The notes beneath the pieces were generated by a model. The model was not told the DNA's origin. It saw only the letters and a list, made by a program, of their open reading frames with translations, and ran no database searches. DNA of 53,298 nt, counting the filler, from Jimgerdemannia flammicorona (Eukaryota): NCBI GenBank assembly GCA_003990765.1. It is 2 parts of 2 records of this genome, joined end to end, with 100 filler letters (N's around TTAATTAATTAA, not from the genome) between each part and the next. Parts side by side here need not be neighbours in the genome. Positions count along the whole stretch, not along the records: positions 1 to 26,601 come from RBNJ01000714.1; 1 more part is not named here. One strand, written 5' to 3'. Positions 1 to 50,884 of this stretch are shown piece after piece (within the stretch, counting starts at the first letter, position 1; the number at the start of each line of letters is the position of its first letter). The translations under genes were made by a program, and so were the position numbers.

Positions 1-1767
1 ACCGAACTCCTTGCACTACACCCAGCAAGTCAAGATGAAGAAGGTCTTATTGAAGCCTTCTTTACTCTTCTCAATAAGAGTTTTGTCAGCTCCACAAATC
101 CGAGTGACCTAGGACAACCAGCAGCAGTCTTTCTAGCCTTAGTTCCTCATGAAGCCCAAGCCTCTGTAGCCAAGTGGCTCAACTCTACTGACTTTCACTG
201 CACCAGGACCAAGACCGCCTTATACTACCAATTCCAGAACAGCAAGGCCTGCCATATCCTTAAAGAAGAAGCAAGAGAAACCCTTCATCAACTACCTGAT
301 CCCAAACCTGAAGCAGGCCCTGCTACAGCCCTACCTGAATCTGAAACCAATACCAAACCTGAACTTGACTTTGAATTAAGTCCGTCTGAAATCAGATATA
401 TAACTGATTCTGTCTACTTTGATGCCGAGCAAACCCAATTACACAGAGACCAAACTGAAGAAGAGGAGGAGTATCTCAGTGAATTCGATCCCAGATATAC
501 CACCAAAGGAGAAGTACCTCCATCAGGACAGAATACACCTACATAGCAACAAATAGTTATCTATTAAGCTCTCACTCCAGATCCACAACTACTACTCCAG
601 CAACTTACACAGACCCAAAGAACCTCATCACACTCTGCACCAGTATCTCAAGTAGTACCAGTAACACTACTACCAGCAGTCCAAGCACCTCCAGTAAACA
701 ACATGGCAAACTAACAGATTCTAGACCTTACAGCCCAGGTAGCCATAATGGCAGCAACCATTATTGCCTTAGCTGAACAGACCTGACCTACCAAAAATCT
801 GAGCCTACCTACCTTCAATGGTACTGTACAAGAAGTCCAAAGCTTCATTAGTGTAGTTGACACCAACTTCGAAGCCAATCAATGGACTAATGAGCAAGTT
901 GCTGACCATATTCTGATAAACAATCAAGACCACACCCTGGAATAACTCTTTGCTACCACTACAACCTATGTCCGCCGAGTTGTTATATTCTTCTGAGGAC
1001 CTGCTGAAGAATGGTGGTGAATCCTTCCTGAAAAACTCCTCACATGGGATACCCGACCTGCAGTAGTTGCCCAGAATGCAGCAAACAATGCCCCAGGATA
1101 TAGAGCCCATCCTGCAGCCCCTGGACTCAAACAACTCATGATTGCTCAATATCGCAGTGAAATCATAATTGCCGAATCTCGAGTAAAACTCTGCAACCTC
1201 AAATTTAATATATATGGCAAAGAAGAATTCGAAACCTTCTGTACAAAACTCAAGTCACTCCTGAACACTGTTGGCCTAGGATTCATTGCCAATGACAAAG
1301 CACAAAATAGTACAAGAGCAGACCATTTATTTGATGCTCTGCCTGAATGGCTTACTAGAAAAATCTGAGAGCAAGGCTGCCTAGTTGGTTGTAATCACCA
1401 ATAATGGTACCTGGTAAGAATCAAGACCATGGTCAAGCAAATCCTAACAGCTGGACCAATTCTGCCCTGAAGACAATTTAACAACAAGGAAAAGACTTGG
1501 ACCAAGAAAGAAGAACCCAAGCATGAAGCATCCTGAGCTCCCTCCACATCCACCTCTTGGACACCCAGAAATCCTGAACTCACCCAGCCCAGTACCTTCA
1601 AGAAACTTACTGAAGGTGAAAGGAATGAACTTCAAAGAAGTGGAGCATGCTTCTATTGCCGAAAGACAGGACACATGGCCAGTACCTGCCCCAACCGAAA
1701 ACCCCGAACAGCAACATGAGCAACTGTTACCACTCTGCACCACCTCAACAACCTGACCACCAAAACA

Positions 1768-2175
1768 CTAGACTTTGTCAAGTTAAGACAAACTGCTAAG
1801 ACCCCAACCAAAGGAAGTCAAAAGGCAGCCGGATATGACCTGTATGCAGCTGAAGAAGCTACAGTTTCCAACCGAGAAGTCAAACAAGTCTATACAGGAA
1901 TCAGTATCCAAATCTCTGAAGGACATGTTGGAAGAATGTGCTGTTACAGCAGCCTAGCATTGAAAGGACTCTTAGTAGAAGGAGGAGTCATTGATGAGGA
2001 TTACACAGGTGAAATTATTGTCCTCATCCGAAACCACAGTTAGACACCCTTCAAGATCCCTATTGGTTTCTGCATTGCCCAGATTCTATTCGAAAAAATC
2101 AAGTCAACCCTGACAGTCAAGGAAGTCTCTGAACTACTGCCCACCATCCGAGGATCCAAAGGATTTGGCTCATCA
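1768..2175 (+). pseudogene. dUTPase domain between Gag NC and protease (family A)
   Basis: Frame-1 translation gives trimeric dUTPase motifs AAGYDL (~1825-1842), SSLA, GGVIDEDYTGEI (1981-2016), IAQILF and RGSKGFGSS (2149-2175); one TAG at 2041. Confidence 0.93.
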
Positions 2176-5100
2176 AACAAAGCCCCAGCCCAACCTACCA
2201 TGAGCAAAGAAGAACAATTCTACAAGAAGATCGAAGATGGATATGTACCAAGTGGCCGATGTCCTCATGGTATTGGAATGTACTCTTCCCGAATAATTGA
2301 TGATTGCTTCTCTTGTGTCAATGAACTGGCTCAAAGAAGAACCAATAGAAGAAAGGCTCCTACAACTGAAATCACCACCATTGGATCAGACAAACTGCTC
2401 ACCCTTAAGGCTTTTGTCAACGGAGCACCTGTCAAGATTATGATAGACAGTGGTGCCTCAGGCAACTTCATCAATGAAGAGACAGCCAATAGACTCAAGG
2501 TCTTCACCTCTCCAGTACAGCAAACTCAAGCAGTTGCTACAGCTGATGGAACCTCATATGTTATTAGCAAAGAAGTCTGCAATCTACCCTTCCGAAATGG
2601 CAACTACCAAGTACATGTTACCCTCCAAATTGTACTACTTCCTGACAATGAAATCATCCTTGGGACTCCATGGTTAAAACAAGAGAACCCCATGATTGAT
2701 TGGGTAAACCATTCTCTGACCATCAAGAAAGGACGCCACAACTTCAAACTACAAGGCAAAAAGGACTCACTCAACTCTAGTGACCCTGGACCAAAGATCA
2801 CCCACATCAACAAGCTACAACTCAAGAAATTGGCCAAGAAATACCCTCTCTTCACTATCTCCATCTGACCATCTAAAGGAGAACCTGAGAACTCTGAAGA
2901 AGATTTCTCCAAAGTTGACAGCTGTGTCCGACCACTACTCCAGAAATTCCAAGATATATTCCCAAAGAAGCTCCTGAAAGGCCTACCTCCCAAACGAGCA
3001 GTAGACCATACAATCAAGACTATCCCAGATGCCAAACTAGCCTTCAAGTCAATCTACCACATGTCTCCAAGAGAAATCGATGCACTCAAGAAAGAAATTG
3101 ATGAACTCCTAGAACAAGGGTTCATCAGACCCAGCATATCACCCTATGGTACACCAGTCCTCTTTGTTGTCAAAAAAGGAGAAGACCTGCGAATGTGCAT
3201 TGACTACTATGATCTCAATGAACAGACCATCAAGAACTGTTGCCCACTACTGAGGATTGATGAAATATTCGATAGGCTCACCAACCCACAATTCATAAGC
3301 TCTTTTGACCTGCGAAATAGTTACTGGCAAATTGCCATGAAAGAAGAAGACATCTACAAGACAGCTTTCCGAACTCGCTATAGACACTTTGAGTTCCTGG
3401 TTATGCCATTTGGCTTAACTAATGCCCCAGCAACCTTCCAGACACTGATGAATACCATTCTGCATCCATACCTGGACAAATTCATTGTTGTCTACATTGA
3501 TGACATCCTAGTCTTCAGCAAAACCCTAAAGGAACATCTTGAACACCTTGAACTAATACTACTAAAACTCTGAGAAAACCGACTCTTTGCAAAACCCAGC
3601 AAGTGTGAATTTCTTCTGAAAGAAATTCAATTCCTTGGACACATTGTCACTCCAAATTGAATCAAAGTGGACCCCAGAAAAATCTCTGCAATCAAAGATT
3701 GGCCTACACCCAAGAAGCTAAAAGACCTCCAGTCATTCCTGGGATTAGCAAACTATTATAGGCAATTTGTTGCCAACTTTGCTAAAATCGCTACTGCCCT
3801 CACCCAAATGACCAAGCATAGTAAGAAACAAGAACAACCCTGGACCATGAAACAAGAGAAAGACTTCAACAATCTTGTAAATTGGGGATACAAGCAAGAT
3901 ACCACCTTTCAAGCACTGAAAGATGCCCTGATAACCACACCAGTACTTCAAGTGGCAAACCCTGCCCTACCATATGAAGTCACTACTGATGCCTCTGATC
4001 TAGCTCTTGGAGCAGTGCTCATGCAAGAAGGACACCCTGTGGCCTATCACTCCCACAAGTTCAATGATGCCAAAATCAACTATGCAACTCATGAGAAGGA
4101 AATGCTAGCCATTGTAGACACTCTGATCAAATGGTGACCATATCTAGAAGGAGCACACTTCACTGTATTGACTGACCACAAGTCATTAGTCAACATCAAG
4201 ACACAGGCTACCCCTTCCCGAAAGCAAGCCAGATGGATGAAAGTCCTCACTAACTTTGACTACAAAATCCAGTACCACCCTGGCAAGGAAAATATTGTTG
4301 CCGATACAATCTCCAGACCACCAATCGAAGAGGTTATCCAAACTCTGACCTTGGTTACCAACACTATCATGGAACAAATCATTGCAGCATGTATTGATGA
4401 TAAGGAAGCTCAAGCACTCCGAGAAATCCTGAACAATGATGATGCTGACAAGTATACCTAGTACAATCAATACCAACTCAAGGACAATGCTATCTACTAC
4501 AAGGATAGATTGTATGTCCCAAACAACCAAGACCTCCGAAGGACTATCCTATTCGAATGTCATGATGCCCCTATAGCTGGACATTTAGGATTTGATAAAT
4601 GCTATGAAGTTATCTCCCAGAACTTCTATTGGCCCTGCATGGCAGATCAGCTCAAAACCTACATTACTTCCTGTGATGCCTGCTAACGAAACAAGTCCTC
4701 AACACTAGCAAAACCCGGCTTACTCTACCCTATCCCAGTACTATCCACAAATTGAGAACAAATCTCTATGGACTTCATTGTACAACTACCCTGAACCAAG
4801 AACAGGAAAGATACAATTGTTGTCTTTGTGGACTATCTCAGCAAACAAGCCCACTTTGTGCCTACTACTACTACTGCAACAGCACCAGACATAGCCACAC
4901 TCTTGTTTGACAATATCTTCCACTATCATGGTCTTCCTGAGATCATTGTTAGTAACCGAGATCCGAAATTCACCAGCCACTTTTGGAAAGCCCTCCATGT
5001 ACACCTTGGAACAAAACTTGCACTATCCACAGCCTTTCACCCAGAAACTGATGATCAAACTGAAAGAATGAACCGAACTCTGGAACAAATGCTAAGGAAC

Positions 5101-5666
5101 TATGTTTCCTACAGACAAGATGACTGGTATGAACACCTCACCGCAGTTGAGTTTGCCTACAACAATAGCAAGCAAGGCTCCTTGGAATGACCCCATTCTT
5201 TGCCAATACTGGACAAAATCCAAACACCCCTTTGACACTTATCTGAACTACTGAAGAACCCTCCACAGTTGAAGCTGTTGAAGAATTCTTACTCCGAATG
5301 TGCAATTTAAGCCAGATTACTATTGAGAATTTATCACGAGCTCAAGAACAATAATCACAGTATGTTAACCAACATCACCAAGAAGAAACTTTTGATATTG
5401 GAGAAAAAGTCCTACTAGACATCAGAGGATACCGAGTTGACAACCTCAAGCACAGACTATCTACAAAGCTGAACAGCAAGTTCATTGGACCATTTGAAGT
5501 CATCGCATAAGTCTCTCCAACCTCCTACAAACTGACACTACCAGACACCATTAAGATTCACTCAGTCTTTAATGTTCAACGTCTCAAGTGATACAATGAG
5601 AATGATGATGAGCTATTTCCAAACCGGACCACCAAACCACCTGCACCTGTCATTATAAATGACTAA

Positions 5667-5834
5667 GAAGAGTACAAAGTTGAACAAATCCTCAACAAAC
5701 ATGGCAACAAGAGCCACCCTGAGTATCTTGTCAAATGGAAAGGTTACCCGATCCATGATGCAATCTGGGAACTCAAGACCAATCTCCAGAATGCTACCAA
5801 CCTAGTTTAGGAATATGATTCCTTGAACAACTAG
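5667..5834 (+). pseudogene. Integrase C-terminal chromodomain (family A)
   Basis: EEYKVEQILNKHGNKSHPEYLVKWKGYPIHDAIWE matches the group I chromodomain pattern Y.VE.IL...YLVKWKGY....WE. Confidence 0.92.
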
Positions 5835-6045
5835 AACCAGATACTTCGTACCTATTCATACATACTATATATTATCCTCCCGAACATTATAATTATTGCA
5901 ACCCAAACCAAGAACTCAGCAAAACAAGACAAGAATACTGACCCTCTGGAGAAATGGCAAACCGAAAGCAAGCCTATTCTCCCTGTACCACTGAACAAAA
6001 TTAGAAGGCCCCGACAAGGACGTCGAAAGCTAAGAAGGGGAGAGT

Positions 6046-8106
6046 TGTAAGCGCACAACCCCCAAGCCACTGAAATTATATGTCACCCTCTGAACAAGCC
6101 ACTGAAATCATACGTGACCCTGAACAAATCTAGAAATTACTTGCTTGATCACAAAGCTGAGTCAAACTGAAGTCACAGTGCACAAAGCTGAGTCAATATG
6201 AAGTCACGGAACACAAGATTTACACAAATGGAATCTTACCAATCAGGACTAAATGCATATATACCAAGCACTGAGATGCATCGAATCAGAGAACCAAAAC
6301 AAACAACAACCATAACTTCCAAACACACAAACATGACTACTGAGATCTACAACTGTATCCATGCTGACATTTGGAATGCTATTGTCAACCGAGCTACACC
6401 CCCTCTGCCCCTCATGAATATCCATAGCCTAGCACCCCTCTACTTTGTGGAAGCCTGATGGAACGCTCTGAACATGCTTAGCAAGGCTCACCAAATTGGA
6501 CAAATCTCAAGCTACTACCAGATCGGCTGCCTCCTGGAAGACATGGTCGAACACCATCATGATACAGACATTACCCAGATGTCTCAACACCAGAAGCTCA
6601 TCACCCACAAACATCGAGAACTCTTCTACAAGTATAGCACCTTTATTCCCCACCTCCGAGTTACTACCAGTGAAATGGTTGCTACCCTGTCCTACAGCCA
6701 AATCGATGACATAATATAAGAACTCAACCAGAAGTACCTCGAGTACATTGAAACCACAGACCGAACCTTCCCTCACCCCAATGATCACATCCTACAAATG
6801 CCCCAAGTTGGATATGCCATGAAGGACATCTACAATATAATCCACTTTAATGAAGATGAAGCAGAAGACAATGATTCCTCTGATACTGACATGACCTCTA
6901 GCCAAGGATCTCTGCCAACCCTGATCATACCGCCAACCTTGCTGATGAACTTACAACAGTTCATAACTACATATGAGACTTATTGGGACAATGACCACTG
7001 GCATGAATACCAACCTGCATTTACTCCCAATTACTTCAACTACAATGAAGAGATTGGAGAATACAACTTGTACCTTCAGACAACCCTCAAGATTGAACCA
7101 ACCACTCCACCACCTGAGTACGAGCAACATGAACCACAGCCGCCAGCTTACTACAATCCTGCAACTCATAGTGCTGTAACCTATAGAAGGTACGCAGACA
7201 GTGAATCCAATGAAAGTGAAGACAATATACCCATCCTTCATCCACCAACACCTTATCCAGCCTACAAGACAGATGATGCTATCCTGTGGGACGGTGATGA
7301 AGTTCCAATATATTATTACCTCAGCGAACAAGGAGAAGTAATCTGTGAACCACTCTTCCTAGACAACTACTTCATCAGAGATGATGCAATTGATGGTGAT
7401 GTCATCGAGGACTACCCAGATAGCACCTAAACTCATAAATAGTCTAGCAGTCATAGTATAGTTAGATTAGCCTTGTATGACGTAACTGTGAACTGACTCA
7501 GCAGTCAGATGATCTCTTGACATATCAGATCACACTTGTATTATGTGACTGCATTCCGACTCAGCAAAGTACTTAGTGCTATATCCATATCTAGCATAGT
7601 CCAGATAGCCCCTCATTAGTATAAATACCCCCTCCTCCAGACCTCAGAATCTCAGACTCGAATACACAAGAACATTCCTGAATACTTCCCCACAATATCC
7701 CTTCATACAACTACTCCTAGTATAGCAATATCATGAATAGCAAATAAACCTATTCAATAACCCACAAACTACTCTTAAGTAAATCCACCCCCTGTTAGGT
7801 CCCACTCCTAACCCCATCACGAAATTTCCTAATTGGGTATTGTCTGCGGCGATACACCAATTCAACTAAGCTGGTCTTAGTTTCTTGAACTTCCTGAAAT
7901 ACAGAAAATCCTAAACATCCAGAACTAGTCCGAAAAAGGACTTTGGTTGAGATGTCAACCCGATCTTGAAATCAATAAGCATAGAGGACATACTCCATAT
8001 GAAATTGATCTTGACCATAAGAAAACAGTCTTCCAGAATATCCAGAACCTCTAGTAAACTCTTCCAGAACCATGTAAAGGTTACCCTAAAGAGTAACTCT
8101 CTTATA
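6046..8106 (+). repeat. Putative long (~2.06 kb) 3' LTR of family A
   Basis: Starts TGTAAG right after the PPT; ends CTTATA; contains TATAAATA at ~7620 and TGA(G/C)TCA motifs at ~6158, ~6189 and ~7494. The 5' LTR is outside the window, so the right boundary is inferred. Confidence 0.65.
6333..7430 (+). pseudogene. ~365-aa accessory ORF downstream of the PPT (inside the putative LTR), two premature stops
   Basis: ORF-track pieces 6198-6458, 6474-6719 and 6798-7430 share one frame, broken only by TGA (6456) and TAA (6717). ATG at 6333 in context CAAACATG; TATA-like ATATATA at ~6257; acidic, Tyr/Pro-rich C-terminal half with PPEY and PPAY. Confidence 0.75.
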
Positions 8107-9530
8107 CTGGGCCACTCTCTTCACTCTTTTTTCCTGCCCTCCCTTGGTATTCCTTCTTGCCAACTCATCTCATTTCTCCTCCAGCACATTCTGCAGTTTA
8201 TCCTCACTAGTAGCCCCACCTGATACTCTATACTGAGGGTGCTTCCCCTCAACCATCTCTATATCTTCCATGACCATACTCAATCCAGAGTCACCTTCTG
8301 CTCTCTGAGTCACCTCTAGAGCCACCCCCTTCTCCTCTGCCCAGGCACTCATTTACAATTCAGCATCTTCAGCAGTAGTCCCCTCTGCTGTCTCCCCTCT
8401 CAACTTCACTAGCAGCTCCTTCTGAATCTGTCTCTCCTGTGCCCACTCCCAGGCTGTCCAATCTAGCTACACCTTCTTGCTATTGACAATCTCTACAACT
8501 ATCTTGACCTCATACTTCTTCTAGACCAATCTCCTCCTCTCTATAGCTCCAGCCAGGTCCTCTAATACCTTCAGCAAGTTCTCTTCTTCCTTCAGTATCT
8601 CTTTTACTTATAAGACCTTGTATTCCACAGATCTCTACTTTAGAACTACCAGTCAGTCCCTTGTCTTCCCCATATTCTTCTTGCCCACCAGCTATATCCT
8701 GATATTCACATCTCCAGTCTGGAATTTGGTACTCACTCAGATCCTAAACCCAATATCCATGATCTCTCTATACTTCTTGATGGCCTCTACAATCAACTCT
8801 CTGATCATTTCCTTTAATACTATAGACATATCTAGTATCATCAACTGTACTACTCAGGGATCCCAGCATAAGCACCAGGCTATGGGAATTACCACCCCCC
8901 TACTACTACTCTATTCTTCATCACCTCCAACAACACCTCCTCCTTCTTGAAGCCAACCTCTACCTCTTCCAGTCTCTTCAAAAACTTCACCAAAGTGGCC
9001 CCCTTCACCTCCTAAGTCAGAAGTCCCAGAATTATTCTTGCTGTAACTGCTAAGTCTCAGAAGCACAATGTGATAGTAAATTCTGACCTCAATTTCTTGA
9101 GTAATAGTGCTACCACCAGTCCCATCACACCATCTGCCAGGTCCCTAGACCTTATGCCCACCTCCTGTCCAGATCTCTCATTAACTATTATATCTGGATT
9201 TTTTTTCAGATTGGCAGTCTTCTTACTATCAGCAGTCCCACTCTCCCTAGCTACTACTCCTCTAGTTCTGCTGCCCTTGCCTCTATGGACTGCTTCCCCA
9301 GTACCTACAGCTCTTGCTATCTCCTTGCCCTTTCTCAGCCAGCTCTCCAGCCCAGTTATCATCATTGATCAACTCTCCTTCACCTTGTCCATAAAGCTCA
9401 TCCTCCTTATTCTCTGTCTCTTCACACTATCTCCTCCTCTTTTATATCTTCTAGTTAGCAAGCCCCTCATACTTTCCTCCAAGCTATAACTCCTCTCTAC
9501 ATACTGTCATTCAAATATACTAGGGCCACT
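8107..9530 (-). mobile_element. L1/Tx1-like LINE ORF1 fragment
   Basis: 9057-9365(-) DLADGVMGLVVALLLKKLRSEFTITLCF matches DLADSIMGLAVAPLLKKSISEFTVTLCF at 43631(+), which lies upstream of an APE-RT ORF2. Confidence 0.8.
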
Positions 9531-11926
9531 CTATATAGCATGTATCTCAGAATACTCATTAGTTACTATATTACTAGTATCTTTTCTCTAAAAATAAAGT
9601 CTTGAGTATTATCAGAAGTTTGTATAATCTGAATATTACTGGAAAAAAGTAAGGAGCAATTAGATGAGACAAAAATGTTCTAGTAATATCTTGATACTAA
9701 GAGAAGATTTTTAGGTACTTAAAAGATACTGGAATATAGTAGAATATTTAAAAAAAGATAAGAAAAGACTAATAAAAAGATGTAAAAAAGTACTATAACT
9801 AAAATATAACTATAAAATTATTACATTCCTCTTTTCTTAAGAACTAATATTCTTATTGAGTTTTTAGATTATATAAGACTAAATATACTTAACCAAAATT
9901 TCTCAAACTTATATTGATATATTAGTAAGGACTGACTATTTTCATATAGGGTAGAGAGTCTATTACTAGACTAACTATCTGAAAGAGATTCAAATCTAGC
10001 TAGTAGCTTCATTTTGGTAGACTTCTTATTCACTAAATGTTCTGTTAATTTCAGGGTCCCAAAGTAAACTTTTAATATATAAGATACTAGTTATTGTTAT
10101 AAATCATCAATAATTCAAAAATGTCACTATAGAGATTACATAATATATTTTATCTCAAAGTCTTAAATAGGTCTTGAGAGTTCTTAAGGTTAACTGATAA
10201 TTTTCAGATAGTATTATATTTAGGATAGCTCATCCACTTGACCAGATATTTAGGATGATGATAGTAGATTCATTTGTTAAGTATTTTCTCATCTTCATAC
10301 TCAATATAGTCCTCAATAATTATAAGAGTAGATGGCTTGAGAATTTAACCAGGATAGGGTAGTGACTGGTTCCAGATCTTGAGATATAATATATAAAAAA
10401 CTGATATCCTCATGATTTCAGATAACTTAAGATAATAGAAGGATGCAGAGACTTGTTTGGTAATCTCAAAGGGTCTAATATACTTAGGTTATAATTTATT
10501 CAATATATAGTTGACTTGAGATTATATCTTAAGATTTTCAATAGATAATAAGACTTGATCTCTAATAGTATATATGACATTATGGTACTTCTTGTCAGTA
10601 TATTTGGCTTAGTATTGTTGGCCTTTCTGAAGATTCATAGTGGTAATCTTAAATAGTTCATTTATCTTATCTGTGAGGTTCTTAGTAGTAGAAACTTATA
10701 TTTGACTATTTTTTTAAAAAAGAACTAGACTTGCAGAGGTCTCAGAGTCTTAATTATAAAGTAGCCAAAAGGGAAAAAGACCAGTAGATTATTAGACAGC
10801 ATTGTTGTATATAAATTCTATATAAGTTAGATAGTGGTCCAAATTATCTTACTCATAAAAAATATAGTTTCTGAGTATTTGCTCTAAGGTTCTATTTATA
10901 CACTCAGTTTATCCATCAGTTTGTAGGTCAAAGATAGTAGATATAGTCAATTGGATTCCCAGAGTCTTGAAGAGAGTTTGCCAGAAGTAACTGATAAACT
11001 TGGGGTCATAGTTACTGACAATTACTATAATAAGTTATAGTGATGAAAGATAGACTTGAAAAAGATTTTTACAATCTCAGATATAGTAGTATTGATAGTA
11101 GTAAGTTTGGTAACTATAGTCTTGATCAGGTGGTTAATGAATATGATGATAGCATTAATAACAGATTGAGTTCATAGTAGTTAAGTTACAAAGTTTATTA
11201 TAATTTACTCAAATTTCTTAGTTGGGATTAATAGTAGTTGTAGTAAACTAGCTAATGCTTAGTTGGTAGATTTATTGTACTAATAGAGATCATAGCTAAC
11301 AATATAGTTATTGATTTCCATAATTATATTTAGCTAATAGTAGTAGTATTGAGTATTTTTGATGGTTTTCTCAATTCTAAGTTAACCAGTAAGTAGAGAG
11401 TTATAGTGTTCTTACAGTATCTTATATGTAGTATAGATTTATATTATCAAATAGATAGACTTTGTAATAATTTCACAGTTATATTTAGTCTTAGTATATT
11501 TTCACATCTTTTAGCTAGTCTTTTTTTATTATTTCTTAAATATTCTATTATGTTCCAGCATCTTCTACTTGTTTGGAAATCTTCTCTCAGTTAGTGCTCT
11601 CAAATGAATCAAATCAATTCAAATCAAATCAAATTGAGGGTGATTCAAATTGAATCAAATTGAGGATTTTTCAATTCGAATTAGGTTCGAATTGAATTGA
11701 GTTCAAATCAAATTAAGGTCTGATTGAAAATATTCAAATTGAATTGAGGTTCAATTTGATTTGAAAAAAAAAAAAATTAGGTTTGTAATTATTAGTGGCT
11801 TATATGATTTATTTATTATTTACATAGATATATATACAGTACTCATGATATATTTCACTCACCTAATACATTCAGCACTCATGACACTCAGTACCTAGCA
11901 GTATGTCTGGTCACAGCAATAGCTAA

Positions 11927-12483
11927 TTAATGGAAATTGTTGTAAGGCCTTTTTCTCAAAGGTAGGTCAGGAGTCAATGGGTTCAACTTCTGGCAAACTT
12001 TAGAGAGAGTACTACAAGTCTTTCCATATCTTCTACAATTATAACAACTGGTCTGAAGATGGCCTCTTGGCTTTAGAGGGGCCAGGGCAATAACTGGGAC
12101 TGGGGCGAAAATAACCAGGGCTGGGGGGGGGTCAGGGCAACAACTGGGGCTGGAGTGACAACTAGGGCTGAGGTGACAACCAGGGCTAGGGCAACAACCA
12201 GGGCTGGGGTGATGACTGGGGCTGGAGGGGCCAGGGTGATGACTGGGGCTGGAGGGGCCAGGGTAACAACCAGGGCTGGGGGGACCAGAGCAGCAGAGAG
12301 TGTTGAGGTAATAGCTAAAATAAATTGCTCAATCACTTTAGCAAGTATTTTCTTCTTCTTTCTATATTCTTCTTGAGTAGCATTGATTTCATCAGTTACT
12401 ACCCAAGTATATATCTTGTCAATAGCATGGTTTATGTCTTTGAAATAATTTGAGAGATAGTTGAGATAAGTTTGAATATGTAT
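11927..12483 (-). pseudogene. Second ORF in the hAT: Pro/Ala/Val repeats, decayed AT-hook-like motif and Cys4 motif
   Basis: Open frame from 12483 (ATA, possibly ex-ATG; TATAAATA ~45 bp upstream) through the 12073-12336 ORF; after a frameshift in the G9 run at ~12123-12131 it reads LKPRGHLQTSCYNCRRYGKTCSTLSKVC..LRKRP..stop. Confidence 0.55.
12078..12290. repeat. 18/27-bp coding-type tandem repeat
   Basis: Units GGGGCCAGGGTGATGACTGGGGCTGGA and ACAACCAGGGCTGGGGTG; all lengths are multiples of 3. Confidence 0.85.
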
Positions 12484-12559
12484 TTTGTTTTTATTTTTAT
12501 TAAAAATAGTAGCTTAGATAGCTTATTTATATGTTTTTAATGCTAGGCCAACAATCAAC

Positions 12560-13095
12560 CCCTGAGAGCTTCATAAGCAAGCCCCAAGCTTCAAATATGG
12601 CTTATAATATTCAAAGCTCTCAGGGCTTGCTTATTGGCTAACATTAATTATATCACCACAGCTTATGAAGCTCTCAGCACCATCTTCTAGCTTGCTTATA
12701 CTCTTGGCACTATATTTGAAGCTCTTGGAGCTCACTTATTAATTGTATCACCACAGCTCTCAGTACCATCTTCTGGCTTATGCTCTTAGTACCATATTTG
12801 AAGCTCTCAGGACTTGCTCATTAATTGTATCACTATGGCTCTTGGCAAGTCCATATAGTGGTGGGTATACTGGTCTGTAGTGGTGGTGGGTATACTGGCT
12901 ATAGTGGATTTGGCAATGGGTTTGGTAGACTGAGACTGGGTAACTGTATATGGTTTGGTCAGAAGTGAGTCCTAAGAGCTTCAAATAATGCAATTAATGC
13001 CAGCCAATGAGTGAGCACTGAGCTTTGAATATAGTGCTATGATGTAATTAATACCTGTTGATAATAAGTAAACTGAGAGCTTTGAATATAGCAGT
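12560..13095. repeat. Direct and inverted ~50-80 bp repeats inside the hAT
   Basis: ATATTTGAAGCTCT..CTTGCTCATTAATTGTATCAC recurs at ~12608, 12713 and 12795; the inverted form GAGCTTTGAATATAG is at ~12586, 12976, 13021 and 13076. Confidence 0.7.
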
Positions 13096-13189
13096 ATGTG
13101 TATTAGAAATATTATGATATATGAATATATTTAGTTAGTTGAGATTAAACTATATTTTGACTATATTTCTAGATTTCAAAATTGGCCAG

Positions 13190-15380
13190 CTTATTGCTAT
13201 ACCTTTAAACACATATATTCATGAAGGGTTTCGGGGTCTAAAGCACCTCTTTTAGGTACCACGAGATCTTTACCTCTTGAAAAAACTCTCTCTATGAGTG
13301 CACTTGTTGCTGGGATAGCTAAATAGTTATATGCCATTTTTGCTAGATTTGGGTAATCTCTGCTATAGCCCTAATGTTTCCAATAAATTAAATTAAATTA
13401 GAGAAACTTAAATAATATTTTGAATTGGATCTATAATATTTTGAATTAGACCAACTTACTTACTATCAAGACAATATATCAACTTCTGGTTGAAATTTAA
13501 CAGTTTTACTTTTTAAATAATTATCTAACTCCTCTTCAGGATTTGTCATCAGTTTTTGTCTTTTGTTGTATATATATTCAGATAGCTCAGCAATGTCATC
13601 AACATTGATATCATCTTCTATTTCAGTATGATCTTCAGAACTTGTATGATAAACTGATAGAGAGGCATAGTTATTATTATAGACTGTATGAATAGTTTTT
13701 TCAGCCATATCAATCCAAATGGTTTCCCAATTGTGGTTTGAATAATATTGTAGTTTAAGTCTGAGATCAAGAACTGGTTCTCATTCAAAGAATAAAATAA
13801 ATTTTGATATGAATTTATAGTTCAAAATTTCAAAATAGTCTTCAGCAACAAGCAAATTTCGAAATATTTACTTACCAGTACCAATATAATAAATTGGATG
13901 ATCTGTCATTGAATAGTATTTCTTCAACTTATCAATAGCTGCTATTAGTGCCTGTTGAATGAGAGTATTCAGCTCTTTAGTTTCTTCTAGTTCTGCTGTA
14001 CAATTTCGAATTACTTGGTCATTATCCTTCAATATATCCAGTAGAAAGTTGTAAATCAGAATAGTAGAATAAATTGTTAGATATTTTTGCCAAGTTGCAA
14101 GATCTGTTATACATTGAAAATTCTTTAACATCAAAATAATATCTTTTAGCAACTGTCAAGTACAATCTCCAATAGCATATTGTTGTAAATCTTTATCAGC
14201 TATAACTATTGAATTTAAGAACTATTAATAAAAATTAATTCATTAGATTAGACTCAGATACAATGGACCCATGTCACCCAATAAATTAAATATAATTAAA
14301 TATAATTACCTCTGATAATTTGATGGCCCATTCAATCATTGAATATGTTGAGTTTTATTAAGTCTTAACATCCAAAATAAGTTCCTTTAGATTGTTGATT
14401 TCATAGGCTTTATATTGTGCAATAAATCTCTCATGATGCTGTAGTGATGACTAGATCTTAATGATGTTCATTTGAAGACTTGAAATCATTTCTCCATTAT
14501 CATCAGCCTTCAGATATATTAAAAAGACTTGAACAGTCAGATTAATAATATGAGTCATACAGCATACATATTGTATTGACTGATAGTTGAGGTTATAATC
14601 AAACTCTATTCTAATTGTTTGAAAAAAATATTGTTATTAGATGCATTATCTGTTATTTTAGTCAATATCTAGAGTGAAAAATCAATAATTTGAAATGTAA
14701 GATAACTGTTTTTTGAAAACCCAACCTTTTTCAAAATTCAAAAAAAACAACCTTTTTCAAAAATCTGACCTTTTGACCTTTTTTGAAAACCTGACCTTTT
14801 CAAAAACCTCTTTTAAAAGGTTCACTCACTCTTTACATATCTTTGTCTGTATACCAAAATCTCGAATATAGCTCCCAAAAGCACTAGCAAGATTTTTGCC
14901 AGAATGAGATCCTTATAGCTTAATAAAATCAATCAATATACAATTGAATTACCAATTTTGACAAATTCAATATGCATTAATTCCAATAAATGCATGTATA
15001 TTCAGTGATGTTCATGTGTCAACAGTGAAGGATATTTGACCTGATATATTCTATTTTGAAATAAATTAAATCAAAATGAGATTAATTTAAAATATTGAAA
15101 TTAGTATTCAAAGTTAAATATTAAATCTTACCTGTAGTGTAATTTTGACAGCATCATGATTCTGTTGAAAGGCCAGTTTAATTTCACTTTATATAGTTCT
15201 AGCAGAAGAAATAGTAATATTCAGTTTCAGAAGACAAAAAACATCTCTCAGCTCCAAATTCTCAACAACTGTAAAAGGCTGACTATCATGAATAATCCAG
15301 TGAACAAGCATATCTTGAAATAATTTTGTAGAAAATCTTGGCTATTTAATATAAAAGAAAAATAGCAATAAATTAATAAG

Positions 15381-15437
<57 letters not shown>

Positions 15438-15744
15438 ATACTTTTGAGAAAAATGATTCTATCACTCCTGCTTGACAACTTTTGTGAAATTTGTTGAAAT
15501 GTGCCCATAGATTTGTTGTAGAGCCACCAATAAACTTATCTGTTATTTTACAGTGATTACATTTAACTCTGGTGATGTCTCCATTCTCTATATACTCTTT
15601 TGTAAACTCTTTCCAAATGCTAGAGTATTCTTTTGCTTTTGCTTTTCCTTTCTTGGACTGTTGTATTGAGACTACACTTGTCATAGCTATGCTTGTTGAA
15701 GCTGTATCTGATACTGAAGCTGTTATCATCACAGTATCCACCAT
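13190..15744 (-). pseudogene. hAT transposase, about 6 GT-AG introns, stops present
   Basis: BED finger SSIWKEF..CNHC..GGSTTNLWAHFNKFH; WIIHDSQPFTVVE; ISFTVDT; IDFIK..SHSGKNLA; TDNASNN; CMTHIINL; LILDVKT; dimerization domain YPNLAKMAYNYLAIPATSALIERVFS. Introns include 15441-15342 (GTATGG..T55..TAG) and donors near 15132, 14830, 14310, 13872 and 13460. Confidence 0.93.
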
Positions 15745-16493
15745 AAGTGGTACTGTAAAAGACGTGTCTAATATGTTTGATTGTGATATACTTGATTGTA
15801 TATATTGTTGTAAGTTGTATCACATGTGAGTTTTAAATTACCATATTTAGTTTTGAATTTTGAATTGAATTCAAAATTCAAACTTCAATTCAAATTGTGA
15901 CTTGATTTTATTCGATTTGATAAAGATTATTAAATTTGGACATATTTTCATTGAGTAATTGAATTTTAAAAATTTAGGTTCAAATTGAAATTTGAATTGA
16001 ATTAGACCTTGATTCAAACCAAACCAAACCAAACTAGACCTCAATTCGAATTGATTCAAATCGAATTGGGCCTCAATTCAATTCAAAGTTTTCAAATTAA
16101 ATCAAATTTAGGTTCAATTTGATTCAATTCAATTCATTGGGAGCACTACTCTCAGTATCCAGATACTACTAGAATATTCTTGTCTTTTCTCAGTACCAAG
16201 TATCTTATATTAGCTAGTTATAGAACCTTTTGGATCATTGTAGAATTATATTAATTAGCTTTCCCAAGAACCTATTTCTTAACATTTCTCTTTCTTTCTA
16301 AGATCCTTCCAGATCTTTCTTTCAGATCATGTATAAATATTCTTATTCTCTGCCTGAATAAAGCTCAGAATATTTTCTCATAGAAATCCTTCAAGAATAC
16401 TTAAATCTTTAAGTATCTCTTTGAGCTACTTTAGGTCAACTAGAACTTTCAGATTTAGCTACTTCTTCTTAAAGAAACTAGAACCATTATACT

Positions 16494-16505
16494 TGATAGC
16501 AGTGG
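16494..16505 (+). promoter_or_regulatory. Putative primer-binding site of B2 (initiator-Met-like, decayed)
   Basis: TGATAGCAGTGG 2 nt after the LTR end; one G>A change from TGGTAGCAG.., the pattern complementary to an initiator tRNA-Met 3' end. Confidence 0.5.
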
Positions 16506-16539
16506 TGTTATTATACCTTGCCTTATTAAGAAACTCTAT

Positions 16540-19500
16540 ACAAATTCAGAAACCAGTTACAACTAGTTACATAAACCTGAAATGAGCCACAAAGAGTCAG
16601 TCTACCAGCTAGACCCCTCTACTATAAGAGAAGTAAAAGAACTATAAGTCAGTATAGAGGACATAATTATCTCTATAACCCATCAAATCTAAGTACTTCA
16701 AGTACAACTAGACTAGCAGAAAATAAGAACTGCAAGTATATCACATCCTACTATAGTATAAGTTAGTTTCAAGCCACTCAAGCTAGATATCTTTAATAGT
16801 TACTGAGGAGGACTATTTATAGATGTATAGATCTTCTAATTTGACCAATACTTCAAGCTTATAAGAATAAAAGAAAATATGTAAGTCCAATTTACTGCCA
16901 CACTTCTCTGAGAAAATGTAGCTATTTGGTGATACAATCATATTATAACTACATCTATGTACTCAAATATACAAATCAAAGATTGAGAAGTTTTCAAAAG
17001 AGGCCTTTACAAGTATTTCAAGTCTGCTAATACTACTAAGCTAGTCAGAGACAAGCTAGCAAACATCAAGCAACTTAAGTCTATACAAAGCTATAATATA
17101 CAATTTCTGTCAATCTTACTCAAACTACCAGCAATAGCTGAAGATGAAAAGATAGACTACTATATCTAAGGTCTAAAGGAAAATATATAAGTCAAGGTCA
17201 AGCTAGAAGAGTCACAAAGTCTTGATAAAGCTATGAGAATTACTGATAGATTTGATGTCATTACTTTTGGTAACTGCTTTGAATCAGAATACTGCAAAAA
17301 GAACTACTTTAAGAACCACTACAGAAACCAACTAAGGATAGTTGGCTTAGTACTAATAGATTTAGACACTATAAATAAAAAGAGTACCAAGCTTATCTCT
17401 GAAGAAAAGAACTGTCTGAAGAAATCTGGAATCTGTTTCTTCTGTCACCAAATAGGACATATCATAACCAAATATCTTAAGAAGACTAGTAAATCTTCTA
17501 GACCAGTCACTGTATTGTCCAAAGATATATCTGTCAATTCTATTATCAGTTAATCTAAGCTTAAGATCAAAAAGCTTCACTTGAAGGCCTAGGTCTCTCA
17601 ATATCAAATAGAAAGAGCCATTGGTCCTGACCTATACTCTGTCAAACAAGTCACTATTTCAGCCAAGAGCCAAACTCTAGTGCCTACTGGAATTGTAGTC
17701 CAATGTCCTGAAGGACTTTATGTCAGAATTGTATCATGATCAGGACTCAGTATCAAATATTATTTAGATATAGATACTGATGTTATTGATCCAGACTTTC
17801 AAGAACAAGTTTAAGTTCTGCTTATCAATCAAAAGAATCAAGACTATACAGTCAAGGAAGGAGACCAAGTCACATAAATGATCCTAGAAAAAGCCAGTCA
17901 ACCCAAGATTATAGAAGTCCAAGAACTCTCTGAAATCAAATGAGACTAAAAAGGTTTTGGTAGTACTGATCAAGCAGCAAGTCTTACTGAAAATCAAGCT
18001 CAAGCTATACTCATTTTCAAAGGTCTAGTCAATAGAAAAGAAGTTCAAATACTTATAGACAGTAGAGCTATAGAGAACTTCATCAATCAGAACCTCATCA
18101 AAAGTCTCAAGATTCTTACCAAGCCTATATCTAAAAATAATAGTATAGTTACTGCAGATGGTACACTGTACCCCATTGAGTCAATTACTGCCAAACTATC
18201 CATCAAGATCCAGAAATATTGGGAATGAGTAGACCTTGAGATTATATTACTAAGTGATCATGATATGATCCTAGGAAAATCCTGGCTTATGAAATATAAT
18301 CCAGACATTGATTGGTATAAGAATGAAGTTACCTTACTTTAAGATAGAGTCAATATCACTATTAAGATAGACAAGATTATGAGTAAGACCCAGATTGTAA
18401 TACTATCAGCCATATAGTACTCAAGAAGGCAATATATGTCTTTGTTGCAATAGTCTATCTCAAGAAATAAGACCAGAAACTATCAGTCAATGAAAGCATC
18501 AAGTTACTACTAGAAGAATTCAAGGATGTCTTTCCAGATAAGCTATCTGGTCTACTACCTATAAGAGAAGTTGATTATAAAATTGAACTGACTCCAGAAG
18601 CTATATCACTCAAGAAATATATATACTACATATTATTACTTGAAATTGAAACAGTTAAGAAGGAACTAGAAGAACTACTTATATTAGGAGCCATTCAGCC
18701 AAGTAAATCTCCTTATGGCTCACCAGTCTTATTTATTAAAAATAAGGATAGTACTCTGTAAATATATATAGACTACTATATACTCAATAAGCTTACTATC
18801 AAGAACTACTATCTGTTACTCTTAATTGATCAAATCTTTGATACTCTCAAGAATGCCAAGTATTTCACCAAGTTGGACCTTATATCAGAATACTATCAGA
18901 TCTGAATCAAGCCAGAAGATATTCCCAAGACTGTGTTTATGACCCCCTTTAGACTTTATGAATTCCTGGTCTTAGAATTTAATCTCACCAATACACCTAT
19001 TATATTCCAGACCTTGATGAATAAGATATTTAAGAACTAACTATTTATTTTTCTGTTGGTATATCTTAACAATATTCTGATATTTAGTACAACTAAAGAA
19101 GAATACCTTGAACATATTTGAATAGTTCTGGAGATTCTGTGAAAATATAAGCTTTATACTAAGCACAAGAAGTGTGAGTTCTTCAAGGAACAAGTCAAAT
19201 ATCTTGGCCACATTGTCTCTATATAAGGAATTCAAGTAGACCTACATAAGATAGAGGCAATTCAATAATAGCCTATTCCATCAAACCTTATAGAACTCTG
19301 ATCCTTCCTCAGTCTAACTGGTTACTATCATTGCTTTATCAGAAACTTCTCTGATATTACTGAGCCACTGACTAATCTCATAAGGAAGGCTCTATACTCA
19401 GATCACTATATACTCTATACCTGGGACCTCTTCTATTAACAAGCTTTCTAAGAACTCAAGAACTATCTAACTTATGCTCCAGTCTTGTATAATGTAGATC

Positions 19501-21361
19501 AAAGTCTAAAATTCATAGTTACCACTGATGTGTTGAATTTTACCATTAGAGTAGTCCTGTCATAAGATGATGGCAAAGAATATCACTTTATTACTTTTGA
19601 GTCCTACAAGCTAGCTCTGGCTAAACAAAAGCTAGCTACCTATAAAAAAGAACTATTAGCAATAATATATGCACTAGACTACTGGTAATACTACTTAGAA
19701 GATATTGAGTTTGATATTATTACTGACTATTAATCTCTTAAGTATATTAACATCCAATCTACTCTATCATATTTATAAGCTAAGTAGAGCCTCAAGCTTC
19801 AAACCTTTAACCTGACAATCATCTATAAGCCTAACAAGATACTTATAATACCAGATACCTTATTGAGACATCTAGACCTTACTCTAATTATGTAAGTCAC
19901 CTTGGTATTAGAATTTTTAGACCAAATCAGACAAGCTTACAAAGAAGATATAGTCACTACTAGAGTTTTCTTAAATAAGCTCAAGGATATATATATACTA
20001 TTACAAACAATCTGATCTATCATTAAGACTAAGTCTATCTACCTAAAAATATAAATCTATATTATAAGGTTTTGTAAGAACACTATGACTCCTCTCTCAC
20101 TGACTACCTTATAATTGAGAAGACTGTTAAGAACATCCAATACCACTACTATTGACCAAGTATGGTTAAGGAAATCAAGAACTATGTTGCTAGCTGTGAT
20201 CTATGTCAGTGTAACAAGTCTACCAACTAAGTACTAGTCAGTTTGCTATAACTATTGCTAATTTCTATCAAGAAATTCAAGTAAGTTACAATGGACTTTA
20301 TAACTCAACTACTATAAACTCAATCTGGTACTGATGCTATCATTATATTCATTGATCACCTGACTAAGACTATGGTTACTGAACTAACTACTACTAATAC
20401 TACTATACTTGAGATTGTAAGAATCTTCCTCAAGTCTATCTTCTGTCACTATGGCTTATTATGAGTAATTGTCAGTAATTGTGACCCCAAGTTTATTAGT
20501 TACTTCTAGCAAACTCTCTTTAAGATCCTGAGAACTCAATTAGCTATATCTACTATCTTTCACCCACAAACTGATAGACAAACTGAGTGCATAAACAGAA
20601 CTCTAGAATAGATACTTAGAAACTATATTTCTTATAAGCAAGATAATTGAGACCACTATCTAACTTATACAGAGTTTATATATAATAATGCTGTCCAATC
20701 ATCTACTGGTCTTTCTCCTTTTCAGTTACTCTATGGTCAAGATCCAAAGATCTCTGTAAGTCTAGTCTCTTTTAAGAAAAACAGTCAAATATAAGTCTCT
20801 ACTGCTAAGAGCCTTACAGACAAAATGAATGAACTACTCAAGATTGCCACTGTAAATCTTCAAAAAGCCCAACAGTATTAAGCCAAGTATGCTGATAAGA
20901 AATATCATGATATCATCTACACTGTTGGAGATTAAGTCATACTATCTACTGAGAATCTCAAGATATAATCTCAAGTCAACCACTTATTGAATAAGTTCCA
21001 ACCTAAATATATTAGACCTTTTGAGATTATTGAATAAGTCTCTGTATCCTCCTACTACCTCAAGCTACCTGAAACCATGAGAGTACACTCAGTCTTTTAT
21101 GTATATATCACACCTCAAGATCTGGAACCAGTTATTGCCCTACTCTGGTCAAATTCCTAAGCCATTTATCCCTATGATTATTGAAGACTATATTGAGTAT
21201 GAAGCTAAGAAAATCCTTAAAAAATGAATCTATTATCACCATTCTGAATACCTAGTTAAGTGGTTAGGCTACTCTGAATATGATGCTATCTAGGAACTAC
21301 TGATCAATCTCAAGAACTGTCAAGATCTAGTTCAAGACTTCAAGGTAAAATATATTGTCTA
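16540..21361 (+). pseudogene. gag-dut-pro-pol of B2, many stops
   Basis: Gag knuckle GICFFCHQIGH (~17430); dUTPase 17557-17970; protease ILIDSRA (~18050); RT SPYGSPVLF, FTKLDL, IPKTVF; RNase H VTTDV; integrase MDF, SNCDPKF, FHPQTDRQTE; chromodomain EYLVKWLGY (~21245). Confidence 0.9.
17557..17970 (+). pseudogene. dUTPase domain between NC and protease (family B)
   Basis: KLKIKKLH...IGPDLYS...LVPTGIVVQCPEGLYVRIVS*SGLS...VIDPDFQ...VLLINQ...VKEGDQV...KGFGSTD; the same domain is in B1 at ~24132-24535(-). Confidence 0.9.
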
Positions 21362-24300
21362 ATCTCTGTAGTAACTTTCTTATATTATTGATAACCTATA
21401 GTAATAACCAGTGCCTTATGCATTGGAAGTTTATTTTGGGACCCCAGAACTAGCAGAATATTTAATGAATAAGAAGTCTACTGAAATGAAGCTACTAGCT
21501 AAGTTCAAACATTAGTCTAATAATAGGCCCTCTGCTCTATATAAGGATGGCTAATCCCCACCAATATGTTAATATAAGTTTGAGAAATTTTGGTTAAGTA
21601 TATATAGTCTTATATTACCTAAAAACTCAATAAAAATATTAGTTCTTAAGGAGGGAGGGATGTAACAATTTCACAGTCATATTTAGTTTTAATATATTTT
21701 TATATCTTTTAGTTAGTTTTTCTTATCATTTCTTAAATATTCTACTATATTCCAATACTTTCTACTTGCTTGGAAATCTCCTCTCAGTATCCAGACACTA
21801 CTAGAACATTCTTATCTTTTCTCAGTACTAAGCATCTTATCTTAGCTAGTTATAGAATCTTTTGGAATATTATAGAATTATATTAGTCAGTTTTGTCAAG
21901 AATCTATTTCTTGATATTTCTCTTTCTTTCTAAGATCCTTCCAGATCTTTCTTTCAGATCATATATAAATATCCTTATTCTTTACCTAAATAAAGCTTAG
22001 AATATTTTCTCTCAGAAATTCTGTATCTCTTTGAGCTACTTTAGATCAACTAGAACTTCCAGATTTAGCTACTTTCTCTTAAAGAAACTAGAACTATTAT
22101 AGACTTTGTTTTGATAGTATATATATTCTTGAGCTTATTTGAAAAAATTCTAGTAGTAATAGTATCTTCTTTAAAAATTCTAATACTAGGGTAACTTATA
22201 TAATTGTGGTGAGGTCTAAATATCTAAATAAGACATCTGATACTATAAGTGTTTTGTCAGACTTATAAGTGATTATTAGATTGAAAGTTTGAAGCTTTAG
22301 GCTTCACTTAGCTTGCAGATATAATATAGTAGGTTGAGTATTAATATATTTGAGTGATTGATAGTCAGGAATGATATCAAACTCAATATCTTCTAGATAA
22401 TATTGCTAGTAATCTAGTATATATATTATTGCCAGTAGCTTCTTCTTATGAGTGGCTAGCTTTTATTTAGCTAGAGATAACTTGTGAAACTTAAAAGTAA
22501 TAGAGCAGTATTCTTTATCATTATCTTGTAACAGAACTACTCTAATGGAAAAATTTGATATATTAGTAATAATAGTAAATTTCAGACTTAGATCTACATT
22601 GTGCAGAACTGGAGTATAGATTAGGCAGTTCTTGAGTTCTTAAAAAGCTTGTTGACAAAAGAGATTCTAAGTATAGGGCATATAGTAATCAGAGTTAGAG
22701 GCCTTCTTTATGAGATTAGTCAGTAGCTCAATAATATCAGAGAAGTTTCTAACAAAGCAATAGTAGTAGCCAGCTAGACTAAGAAAGGACTAGAGTTCTA
22801 TAAGATTTAATGAAATAGGCTATTCTTAAATTATTTCTATCTTATATAAATATACTTAAATTTCTTGTATAGAGATAATATAGCTAAGATATTCAACTTA
22901 TTCTTTGAAGAATTCATATTTCTTAAACTTTATATATAGTTTATATTTTTGTAAGATCTTCAGAACTACTTAGATATACTTGAGGTATTCTTCTTTAGTT
23001 GTACTAAAGATCAGAATGTTATTAAGATATATCAATAAGAAGATAAATAGTTAGTCCTGAAATATCTTATTCATAAATGTCTGGAATATAGTAGATATAT
23101 TAATAAGATCAAATGTTAGGACTAGAAATTCATAGAGTCTAAAGGGAGTCATAAATACAGTCTTAAGAATATCTTTGAGCTTAATTCAGATTTAGTAGTA
23201 CATAACTTGACATGTGATCCAGCTTGATGAAGTACTTGGCATTCTTAAGAGTATCAAAATTTTGATCAATTAAGAGTAGCAGATATCAGTTCTTGACTAT
23301 AAGCTTGTTGAATATATGATAGTCTATATATTTACAGAGTACTATTCTTCTTTTTAATAATAGAACTAATAAGCCATAGGAGAAATTGTTTGGTTGAATG
23401 GCTCTTTATACAAATAATTCTTCTAGTTCTTTCTTAACTACTTCAATCTCAAGAGGTAATATATGATATATATATTTCTTGAGTAGTATAGCTCTTGGGA
23501 TCAGTTTAATTTTATAATCAACTTCTCATATAAGAGATAGATCAGATAGCTTGTCTAGAAAGATATCTTTGAATTCTTTAAGCAAGAACTTAATACTTTT
23601 ATTAATTGACAGCTTCTTGTCTTTACTTCTTAGAATAGACTATTATAACAAAGATATGTTCTGCCTTCTTGAGTAATTTTTTATACTATATTACTAATAG
23701 TATTATAATCTGGATTTTGTTCATAGACTTGTCTGTCTTGATAGTAATATTGACTCCTTCTTAAAATAGAGTAACTTTATTCTTATATCAATTAATATTT
23801 GAATTGTATTTGGTGAGTCAGGGTTTTTCTAAAATTAGATCATAATCTTCTAGTAGTATAACTTCAAAATATACTCATTCTCAATATTTCTGAATCTTGA
23901 TGGGTAGTTTGGTGGTAATTAACTTAATAGAATATAGTGTACCATCTGTAGTAACTACACTATCATTCTTGGGTACTGGTTTGGTAAGAATTTTGAGATT
24001 TTTGATAAAGTTCTGGTTGATGAAGTTTTCTATAGCTCTACTGTCTATGAGTACTTGAACTTCTTTTCCTTTGACTAGTTCTTTGAAAATAAGTATAGCT
24101 TGACCTCAGTTTTCAGTAAAACTTACTACTTGATCAGTACTATCAAACTCTTTCTGGTCTCATTTAGTTTCAGATAGTTCTTAGACTTCTGTGACCTTGG
24201 GTTGACTGACTTTTTCTAGAATCATTTGTACAATTGGTCCCCTTTCTTGACTATATAGTCTTAATTCTTTTAGTTGATACATAAGACTTAAACTTGTTCT

Positions 24301-26601: not shown

Positions 26602-26701
26602 NNNNNNNNNNNNNNNNNNNNNNNNNNNNNNNNNNNNNNNNNNNNTTAATTAATTAANNNNNNNNNNNNNNNNNNNNNNNNNNNNNNNNNNNNNNNNNNN
26701 N
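26602..26701. other. Assembly gap with artificial linker
   Basis: 100-nt N block containing TTAATTAATTAA (26646-26657), which gives stops in all six frames. Confidence 0.97.
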
Positions 26702-28209: not shown

Positions 28210-28220
28210 CTAGTCTCACT

Positions 28221-28265
<45 letters not shown>

Positions 28266-28285
28266 GTCTCTAGTCTCACTTCTTT
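28210..28285 (-). mobile_element. Extremely 5'-truncated LINE insertion with TSD
   Basis: CTAGTCTCACTTCTTT duplicated at 28210-28225 and 28270-28285 around a ~40-nt T run plus ATAGTCT(C), the reverse complement of the LINE terminus GAGACTAT(A)n seen at 32360-32383. Confidence 0.85.
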
Positions 28286-31200: not shown

Positions 31201-31372
31201 GATATTCTTCATATTGTATATTCTATAGAAGAAAAAGATCAGCTTTTAATCTCTTTAGTCAAGTAAAAATATTATATCATCTCTGAGTATCTCTCAAGTC
31301 ATTCACATTTAATAAATTTTTTTTGATTATACTGTTAATGGAAAATAATATTAAAATAAATATATACTCTTC

Positions 31373-50860: not shown

Positions 50861-50884
50861 AGGTCTACAAAGAAACCAATATAC

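Follow-up and report, generated by a model that had tools for sequence, protein, structure and literature searches.

The stretch of DNA analysed here, which we call the window, comprises 53,298 nucleotides (nt), filler included, from the genome of Jimgerdemannia flammicorona, made up of two parts that are joined end to end by 100 filler letters. On the plus strand, positions 1-5810 are the internal region of one decayed Ty3/gypsy chromovirus (Metaviridae), recognised from Pfam domains along frame 1. The internal region and a short spacer are followed on the same strand, to which all features below belong unless the minus strand is named, by a putative and unusually long 3' long terminal repeat (LTR) of 2061 nt at 6046-8106. 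Inside this putative LTR lies an open reading frame (ORF) of 365 codons at 6333-7430, which starts with an ATG at 6333 and closes with a TAA at 7428-7430. The position of this accessory ORF within the repeat, its history as a coding sequence and its possible role in the element are the subject of this report.

The ORF is interrupted by two in-frame stop codons, a TGA at 6456-6458 (codon 42) and a TAA at 6717-6719 (codon 129). An earlier note on this DNA had described a sense ORF broken only by two such stops, and the frame and both stops were found as described. Of 2000 shuffles of 6046-8106 that preserved dinucleotides, none contained an open stretch as long as the observed 236 codons, the largest value being 205 codons, and none contained a 412-codon span with two or fewer stops. 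The base composition by codon position was almost equal to that of pol, and the relative synonymous codon usage correlated with that of pol at 0.78 when read in frame and at 0.26 and 0.60 when read out of frame. Stop codons were about as dense in the ORF (2 in 365 codons) as in pol (9 in 1156 codons), and this similarity indicates that the ORF was probably intact at insertion and decayed together with the rest of the copy. Public contigs from four runs (X1, X2, X7 and one more) were aligned to 5000-9000 at 80% likeness. No indel or skip was located in the ORF among the 12 best-supported indels in these contigs (16 more stand outside that list) and the four listed skips; 8 of the 12 indels sit at 5832-5958, in the 3' untranslated spacer that a reading of the frame places between the chromodomain stop and the polypurine tract (5811-6031).

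When 1.84 billion representative proteins were searched exhaustively with HMMER, the ORF product had two true relatives, P0004 and P0003, each on a metagenome contig of about 1 kb. P0004 (128 amino acids) was 88% identical over residues 1-128, started from the same methionine and had an arginine at the position of the TGA in the window. P0003 (247 amino acids) showed 66% identity and 83% positives over residues 115-364 with two short gaps only, and had a glutamine at the position of the TAA. The window and P0004 show 16 differences, most of which pair an arginine in P0004 with a cysteine, histidine, glutamine or stop in the window; such changes at arginine codons are the pattern expected of CpG decay and fit the low observed-to-expected CpG ratio in the element. 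Two further protein searches added nothing new, since the one labelled 'shorter' gave P0004 only and the one labelled 'longer' gave no match, and the matches P0005 and P0006 were rejected as repeat-driven chance matches. When metagenome, viral and genome contig collections were scanned for the DNA context of the relatives, none was found, and one viral stretch was positive by tblastn without a locus.

As a neutral null, the open 236-codon part of the ORF was drifted to 67% protein identity in 1000 runs per setting. The frame remained open in 28 of 1000 runs at a transition share (ts) of 0.9 and in 20 of 1000 at ts 0.67. The share of conservative replacements under neutrality had a mean of 0.33 at ts 0.9 and 0.31 at ts 0.67 (standard deviation 0.05), with maxima of 0.47 and 0.51, respectively, compared to the observed share of 0.50. 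The shuffles, the two relatives, the neutral simulation and the codon usage bear out the proposal that this is a genuine and formerly intact gene. It is well supported that the ORF is, or was, a real selected coding sequence that had long resided in the element and was not a recent capture.

The placement of the ORF inside an LTR depends on the boundaries of the repeat. Of the three runs of at least 8 purines in 5800-8200, the longest perfect one is the polypurine tract AAGAAGGGGAGAG at 6032-6044. It is followed by a single T and then by TGTAAG at 6046-6051, with which the putative LTR begins. The right end is uncertain and may lie at 8106 or at about 8072; the first candidate is the last letter of CTTATA (8101-8106), an inverted match to TGTAAG in 5 of 6 positions, and the second closes the letters AACCA, with a CA at 8071-8072. 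Both the tract followed by TGTAAG and a decayed inverted end at 8101-8106 had been pointed out beforehand, and both were located there. Downstream of 7430 the sole run of at least 8 purines is at 7932-7940, and 7430-7700 contains neither such a run nor a 15-nt window with 13 purines. The ORF, proposed earlier to sit in U3, does lie where U3 is expected, downstream of the sole good polypurine tract, and not upstream of a tract as an internal additional ORF (aORF) would. The only strict TATA box of the putative LTR (7620) and its only AATAAA (7743) are both 3' of the ORF, in the order of U3 and then R. Searches of metagenome, viral and genome contig collections returned no loci carrying 6046-8106.

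One public contig from run X2, with a depth of 2, runs from 7736 through TGTAAGTAT into 6055. This junction would mean that the TG at 6046 also exists without a polypurine tract before it, as might be seen at a 5' or solo LTR nested inside another copy. Contigs of run X7 whose match sets in at 7676 have dissimilar sequence upstream, which would fit, as a hint, a U3/R border near 7676 and an R-U5 portion common to several subfamilies. Judged from the tract, the TG and TATA-to-AATAAA order, and the X2 junction, we consider it probable that 6046 to about 8106 is an LTR that holds the ORF.

Several further observations concern the right-hand part of the repeat. The contig depth of run X7 was far higher over 7676-8081 than over the remaining LTR, and in another organism this R-U5-like end seems to be spread in combination with different upstream sequences. 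Two copies of TCCAGAACC, 22 nt apart, lie at 8041-8071. The contigs of all four runs diverged from the window after 8048 with the same 9 letters each, and the copy in the window therefore seems to carry, close to the end of the LTR, a small duplication or insertion of its own. Contig depth was not used as an argument that the LTR outnumbers pol and has its end at about 8070-8106, since depth cannot rank the parts. The values set aside were, for run X1, summed depths of ~306-421 over 5000-5803, 631-1314 in the ORF bins, 1751-3095 over 7412-8081 and 3-12 from 8082 on, the three other runs having the same shape; the numbers of X1 contigs at single sites (23 at 8055 and 9 at 8071) were likewise not taken as support. 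This unused profile would also fit a last ~700 nt that is common to more subfamilies.

Promoter-like motifs were found on both sides of the ORF by a scan for repeats and motifs. Upstream, TGAGTCA occurs at 6158 and 6189, and both copies, which are two of the three TGASTCA matches in the LTR, are held in one enhancer-like 31-bp tandem repeat of 2.2 copies at 6150-6216. A TATATA at 6258-6263, 70 nt upstream of the ATG, may serve as an upstream promoter. Downstream of the ORF, a TGACTCA at 7494-7500 precedes the TATA box TATAAATA at 7620-7627, the only match to the strict pattern TATA[AT]A[AT] in the LTR and the proposed core promoter for the genomic RNA. The AATAAA at 7743-7748 is the only AATAAA or ATTAAA in the LTR and would be the poly(A) signal for both transcripts. 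All the motifs that the earlier note had assigned to two promoter-like cassettes, namely the two TGAGTCA, the TATA-like run, the TGACTCA and the TATA box, were confirmed in place, and by position the ORF lies wholly between the putative LTR start at 6046 and the TATA box at 7620. Run X7, which could be taken as RNA only by guess, gave heavy cover over 7680-7947 and thin cover over the ORF and was not used as evidence of expression. Rfam and tRNA scans of the window gave no match.

The product of the ORF is a hydrophilic, acidic and probably soluble protein with an isoelectric point of 4.4 (4.05 for P0003), rich in tyrosine, proline, aspartate, glutamate, isoleucine and threonine. The highest Kyte-Doolittle mean over 19 residues was 1.04, and no hydrophobic segment was present; the protein is thus not envelope-like, in agreement with the claim that it is unlike env and has no transmembrane segment. 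The N-terminal third is predicted, with low confidence, to be helical. A profile search of the PDB with the product gave nothing below an E value of 0.23, the ESM Atlas gave no usable lead, and the product did not resemble the N-terminal gag region of the element itself. PPxY-like motifs (PPEY and PPAY) of the window copy are absent from P0003 and were dropped. Because the C-terminal half is acidic and rich in aromatic residues, our guess is that the product could be a trans-acting regulator, which may activate the LTR or counter host silencing, and, also as a guess, that it is not an enzyme, a capsid protein or an envelope protein.

The element upstream of the LTR shows an ordered series of domains. 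A gag zinc knuckle (zf-CCHC, ~1645-1695) is followed by a dUTPase domain between gag and the protease (1795-2175; PF00692, E 2.8e-22 and 3.4e-05 on two pieces), which is cut in two by an in-frame stop at 2041-2043. Next come an aspartic protease (~2386-2736), a reverse transcriptase (RVT_1, ~3172-3561), an RNase H (~3883-4257), the zinc-binding Integrase_H2C2 domain (4525-4683) and the integrase core rve (4813-5043). The order of protease, reverse transcriptase, RNase H and integrase in pol is that demanded of a Ty3/gypsy element. A Chromo domain (5673-5801; PF00385, E 8.9e-13) lies C-terminal to the integrase, in a reading frame that closes at a TAG at 5808-5810. These ordered Pfam domains and the chromodomain uphold the assignment to the chromoviruses. 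The single frame of gag-pol is open from position 1 of the window, so the 5' end of the element and its 5' LTR lie off the window. Frame 1 contains 22 stops up to 5190, and a frame shift is found ahead of the chromodomain. The copy in the window is dead, as its ORF carries two stops and its gag-pol many. The presence of a dUTPase domain in fungal chromoviruses has already been described in the accessible text of PMC2864245.

Elsewhere the window is made up of AT-rich DNA, a satellite and the decayed remains of retroelements. The observed-to-expected CpG ratio was 0.00-0.03 outside the chromovirus (8107-9500, 10000-25000 and 27000-32000) compared to 0.24-0.33 in the element, which suggests heavy methylation-driven decay of the older repeats and a chromovirus that is younger than its surroundings. 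Large inverted repeats pair 9802-11426 and 16660-19919 with 20063-25430 at 78-83% complementarity, in arms of at most 1029 nt. Their likely source is a different retroelement, present as two old copies that face opposite ways, and one arm holds a remnant of a retroviral protease at 17950-18225. Satellite blocks with a period of ~235-262 nt lie at 34378-36356 and 39228-41483 and are partly inverted to each other, and a C/T-rich repeat is common to 8393-8601 and 50426-50634 at ~70% identity. The GC skew is near -0.5 at 8001-9000, 32001-34000 and 48001-51000 and about +0.43 to +0.53 at 44001-47000. Remnants of reverse transcriptase were found at 32357-32749 on the minus strand and at 46847-47672 on the plus strand. 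The minus strand also holds a BED zinc-finger ORF at 15376-15819 (E 2.2e-4) and a weak DDE_3 transposase remnant at 36668-37144 (E 1.7e-3, below the Pfam cut-off). Two runs of 44 N, at 26602-26645 and 26658-26701, were read as assembly gaps or masked stretches.

We favour, at a probability of about 0.6, the reading that this is the 3' LTR of a long-dead dUTPase chromovirus whose U3 holds a 365-codon gene that was intact at insertion and had been under selection in the family. Because the gene lies downstream of the polypurine tract, it would be present in both LTRs; reverse transcription would copy it with U3 to both ends of the element, and it would be left behind in solo LTRs. A transcript of the gene could start in U3 near 6290, after the 31-bp repeat and the TATATA, and end at the single AATAAA of the LTR (7743), ~310 nt past the stop codon. 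Each LTR would then be a self-contained unit that yields a monocistronic mRNA of ~1.4-1.5 kb, and the genomic RNA would start after the TATA box TATAAATA at 7620, near 7650-7680. An alternative route of expression would be a spliced subgenomic RNA, as used for the sag gene of mouse mammary tumour virus (MMTV). A more far-reaching version, which we offer as a doubtful possibility, is that every LTR, solo LTRs included, is an expressible cassette with its own promoter, the 365-codon gene and a poly(A) signal, and that the product is a trans-acting factor that activates the promoter or blunts silencing.

A number of results weigh against the favoured reading or parts of it. The repeat is seen once only, with the 5' LTR outside the window and no second copy of 6046-8106 found within it, and its candidate end at 8101-8106 finishes in TA and has no CA at 8106. 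The junction at 6046 comes from a single contig of depth 2 at 80% likeness, and repeats can create such joints. TGASTCA is not enriched in the window, where it occurs 11 times compared to 10.9 expected. For the ORF itself, only two relatives were found among 1.84 billion representatives. P0004 stops at residue 128, precisely at the position of the TAA at 6717-6719 in the window, so the stop at codon 129 may be older than the window copy, with the ORF split in a lineage that was still active; equally, residue 128 may be a mere contig end. P0003 begins at Met115, and that copy may be broken or shorter upstream. No Pfam family was found for the product, and no confident fold was obtained: the AlphaFold predicted local distance difference test score (pLDDT) was 33.7 when the whole protein was modelled and 49.9 when its N-terminal part was, while for P0003 the Atlas model had a pLDDT of 0.39. 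Values this low make fold-search matches to these models meaningless. The guess about function draws on composition and nothing else.

Three other explanations of the locus were weighed. The ORF may be an ordinary internal aORF between pol and a true LTR that is short (~650 nt), like that of many chromoviruses, and starts after 7430. An LTR of 600-700 nt with a TATA box and an AATAAA would be typical of such elements, and the dissimilarity of the X7 contigs before 7676 implies that the last ~430 nt also circulate as a separate module. The interval between pol and the 3' LTR is the commonest place for an aORF in LTR retrotransposons, according to the accessible text of a review (PMC7264820). 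However, 7430-7700 has no purine tract and the only good one, at 6032-6044, is 5' of the ORF, while one contig joins foreign sequence exactly at the TGTAAG at 6046. We regard a short LTR as unlikely on these grounds.

The absence of a visible 5' LTR, which lies off the window, would also allow 6046-8106 to be foreign to the chromovirus, either a host gene once captured or a repeat of another kind, lying by chance against a 3'-truncated element, and the ORF matches neither transposon families nor the element's own gag N-terminus. We give this little credence, as the junction falls exactly after the polypurine tract, at a TG, and the base composition, strand skews and codon usage of the stretch are those of pol, whereas the surroundings differ (27-32% GC). 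The ORF and pol are also similar in stop density, and the observed-to-expected CpG ratio is 0.33 here and 0.24 in the element compared to 0.00-0.03 in the flanks. We hold it very improbable that the frame is a non-functional accident of an A/C-rich, G-poor LTR and that gene callers produced both database proteins as artefacts from other copies. Such an accident would accord with the two stops, the low-confidence structure models, the presence of two relatives only, both on ~1-kb contigs, and an antisense frame of 135 codons at 6951-7358. In contrast, the observed length was reached in 0 of 2000 shuffles, the frame remained open with conservative replacements at 66% identity, and its codon periodicity is equal to that of pol.

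The closest likeness to the favoured reading, that of a gene within U3, is found in MMTV. Its sag is a vertebrate retrovirus gene that encodes a membrane-anchored superantigen, and both sag and, on the favoured reading, the ORF described here are complete ORFs of a few hundred codons in U3, 3' of the polypurine tract and hence in both LTRs. The two differ in that the host element here is a chromovirus, and in that the ORF product has no hydrophobic segment and no match in Pfam or the PDB. The product does not have the features of a Sag-type membrane-anchored glycoprotein, with its hydropathy maximum of 1.04 and the same lack of matches. The nef gene of human immunodeficiency virus (HIV) and the bel/bet genes of foamy viruses resemble the ORF in that promoter elements and coding sequence occupy the same LTR, and foamy viruses have a second, internal promoter for the accessory genes bel/bet. 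In contrast to the ORF here, which lies with its start wholly inside the putative LTR, nef and bel/bet start internally and merely overlap U3.

Among retrotransposons, aORFs such as the env-like ORFs of Athila and Bagy2 and those of Grande, RIRE2, Retand and the fungal Boty are internal, located upstream of gag or between pol and the 3' LTR, in the accessible text of PMC7264820. The ORF here is like them, as described in that text, in being a conserved extra ORF of uncharacterised function that has no relatives outside the elements and is kept across copies (PMC7264820). It differs in lying after the polypurine tract, and the text of the review, as far as accessible, never uses the wording 'in the LTR', 'within the LTR' or 'inside the LTR' (PMC7264820). 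The dUTPase-bearing fungal chromoviruses, namely PosPlaTy3 of Postia placenta, an element of Phanerochaete and Tmt1 of Tuber, share with the present element a chromodomain in a Ty3/gypsy element and a dUTPase in the polyprotein, according to the accessible text of PMC2864245. They differ in that an 'add. ORF' appears there in a figure legend, with no LTR placement in the accessible text (PMC2864245). To judge by titles, most of the papers on 'LTR ORFs' that a full-text search listed concern MMTV or its superantigen. A full-text literature search for a complete gene inside a retrotransposon LTR found retroviral cases only, the figures and supplements of PMC2864245 being outside its scope. A gene wholly in U3 thus appears to be known otherwise mainly from a mouse retrovirus.

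Retrotransposon LTRs are regarded as control regions without coding content and are masked by annotation pipelines. If the true LTR of this element is short, the ORF is one more internal additional ORF of a known kind. If the favoured reading of a gene in U3 is true, solo LTRs, which are usually counted as inert scars, can persist as gene copies, and the dose of the accessory factor would follow the number of LTRs and not the number of elements. It would also mean that non-retroviral retrotransposons evolved a 'complex' genome organisation independently, and it would add an orphan protein family. Should the cassette version hold as well, the ORF would be the retrotransposon counterpart of the retroviral regulatory genes, placed wholly in U3 and encoding a protein family without known relatives.

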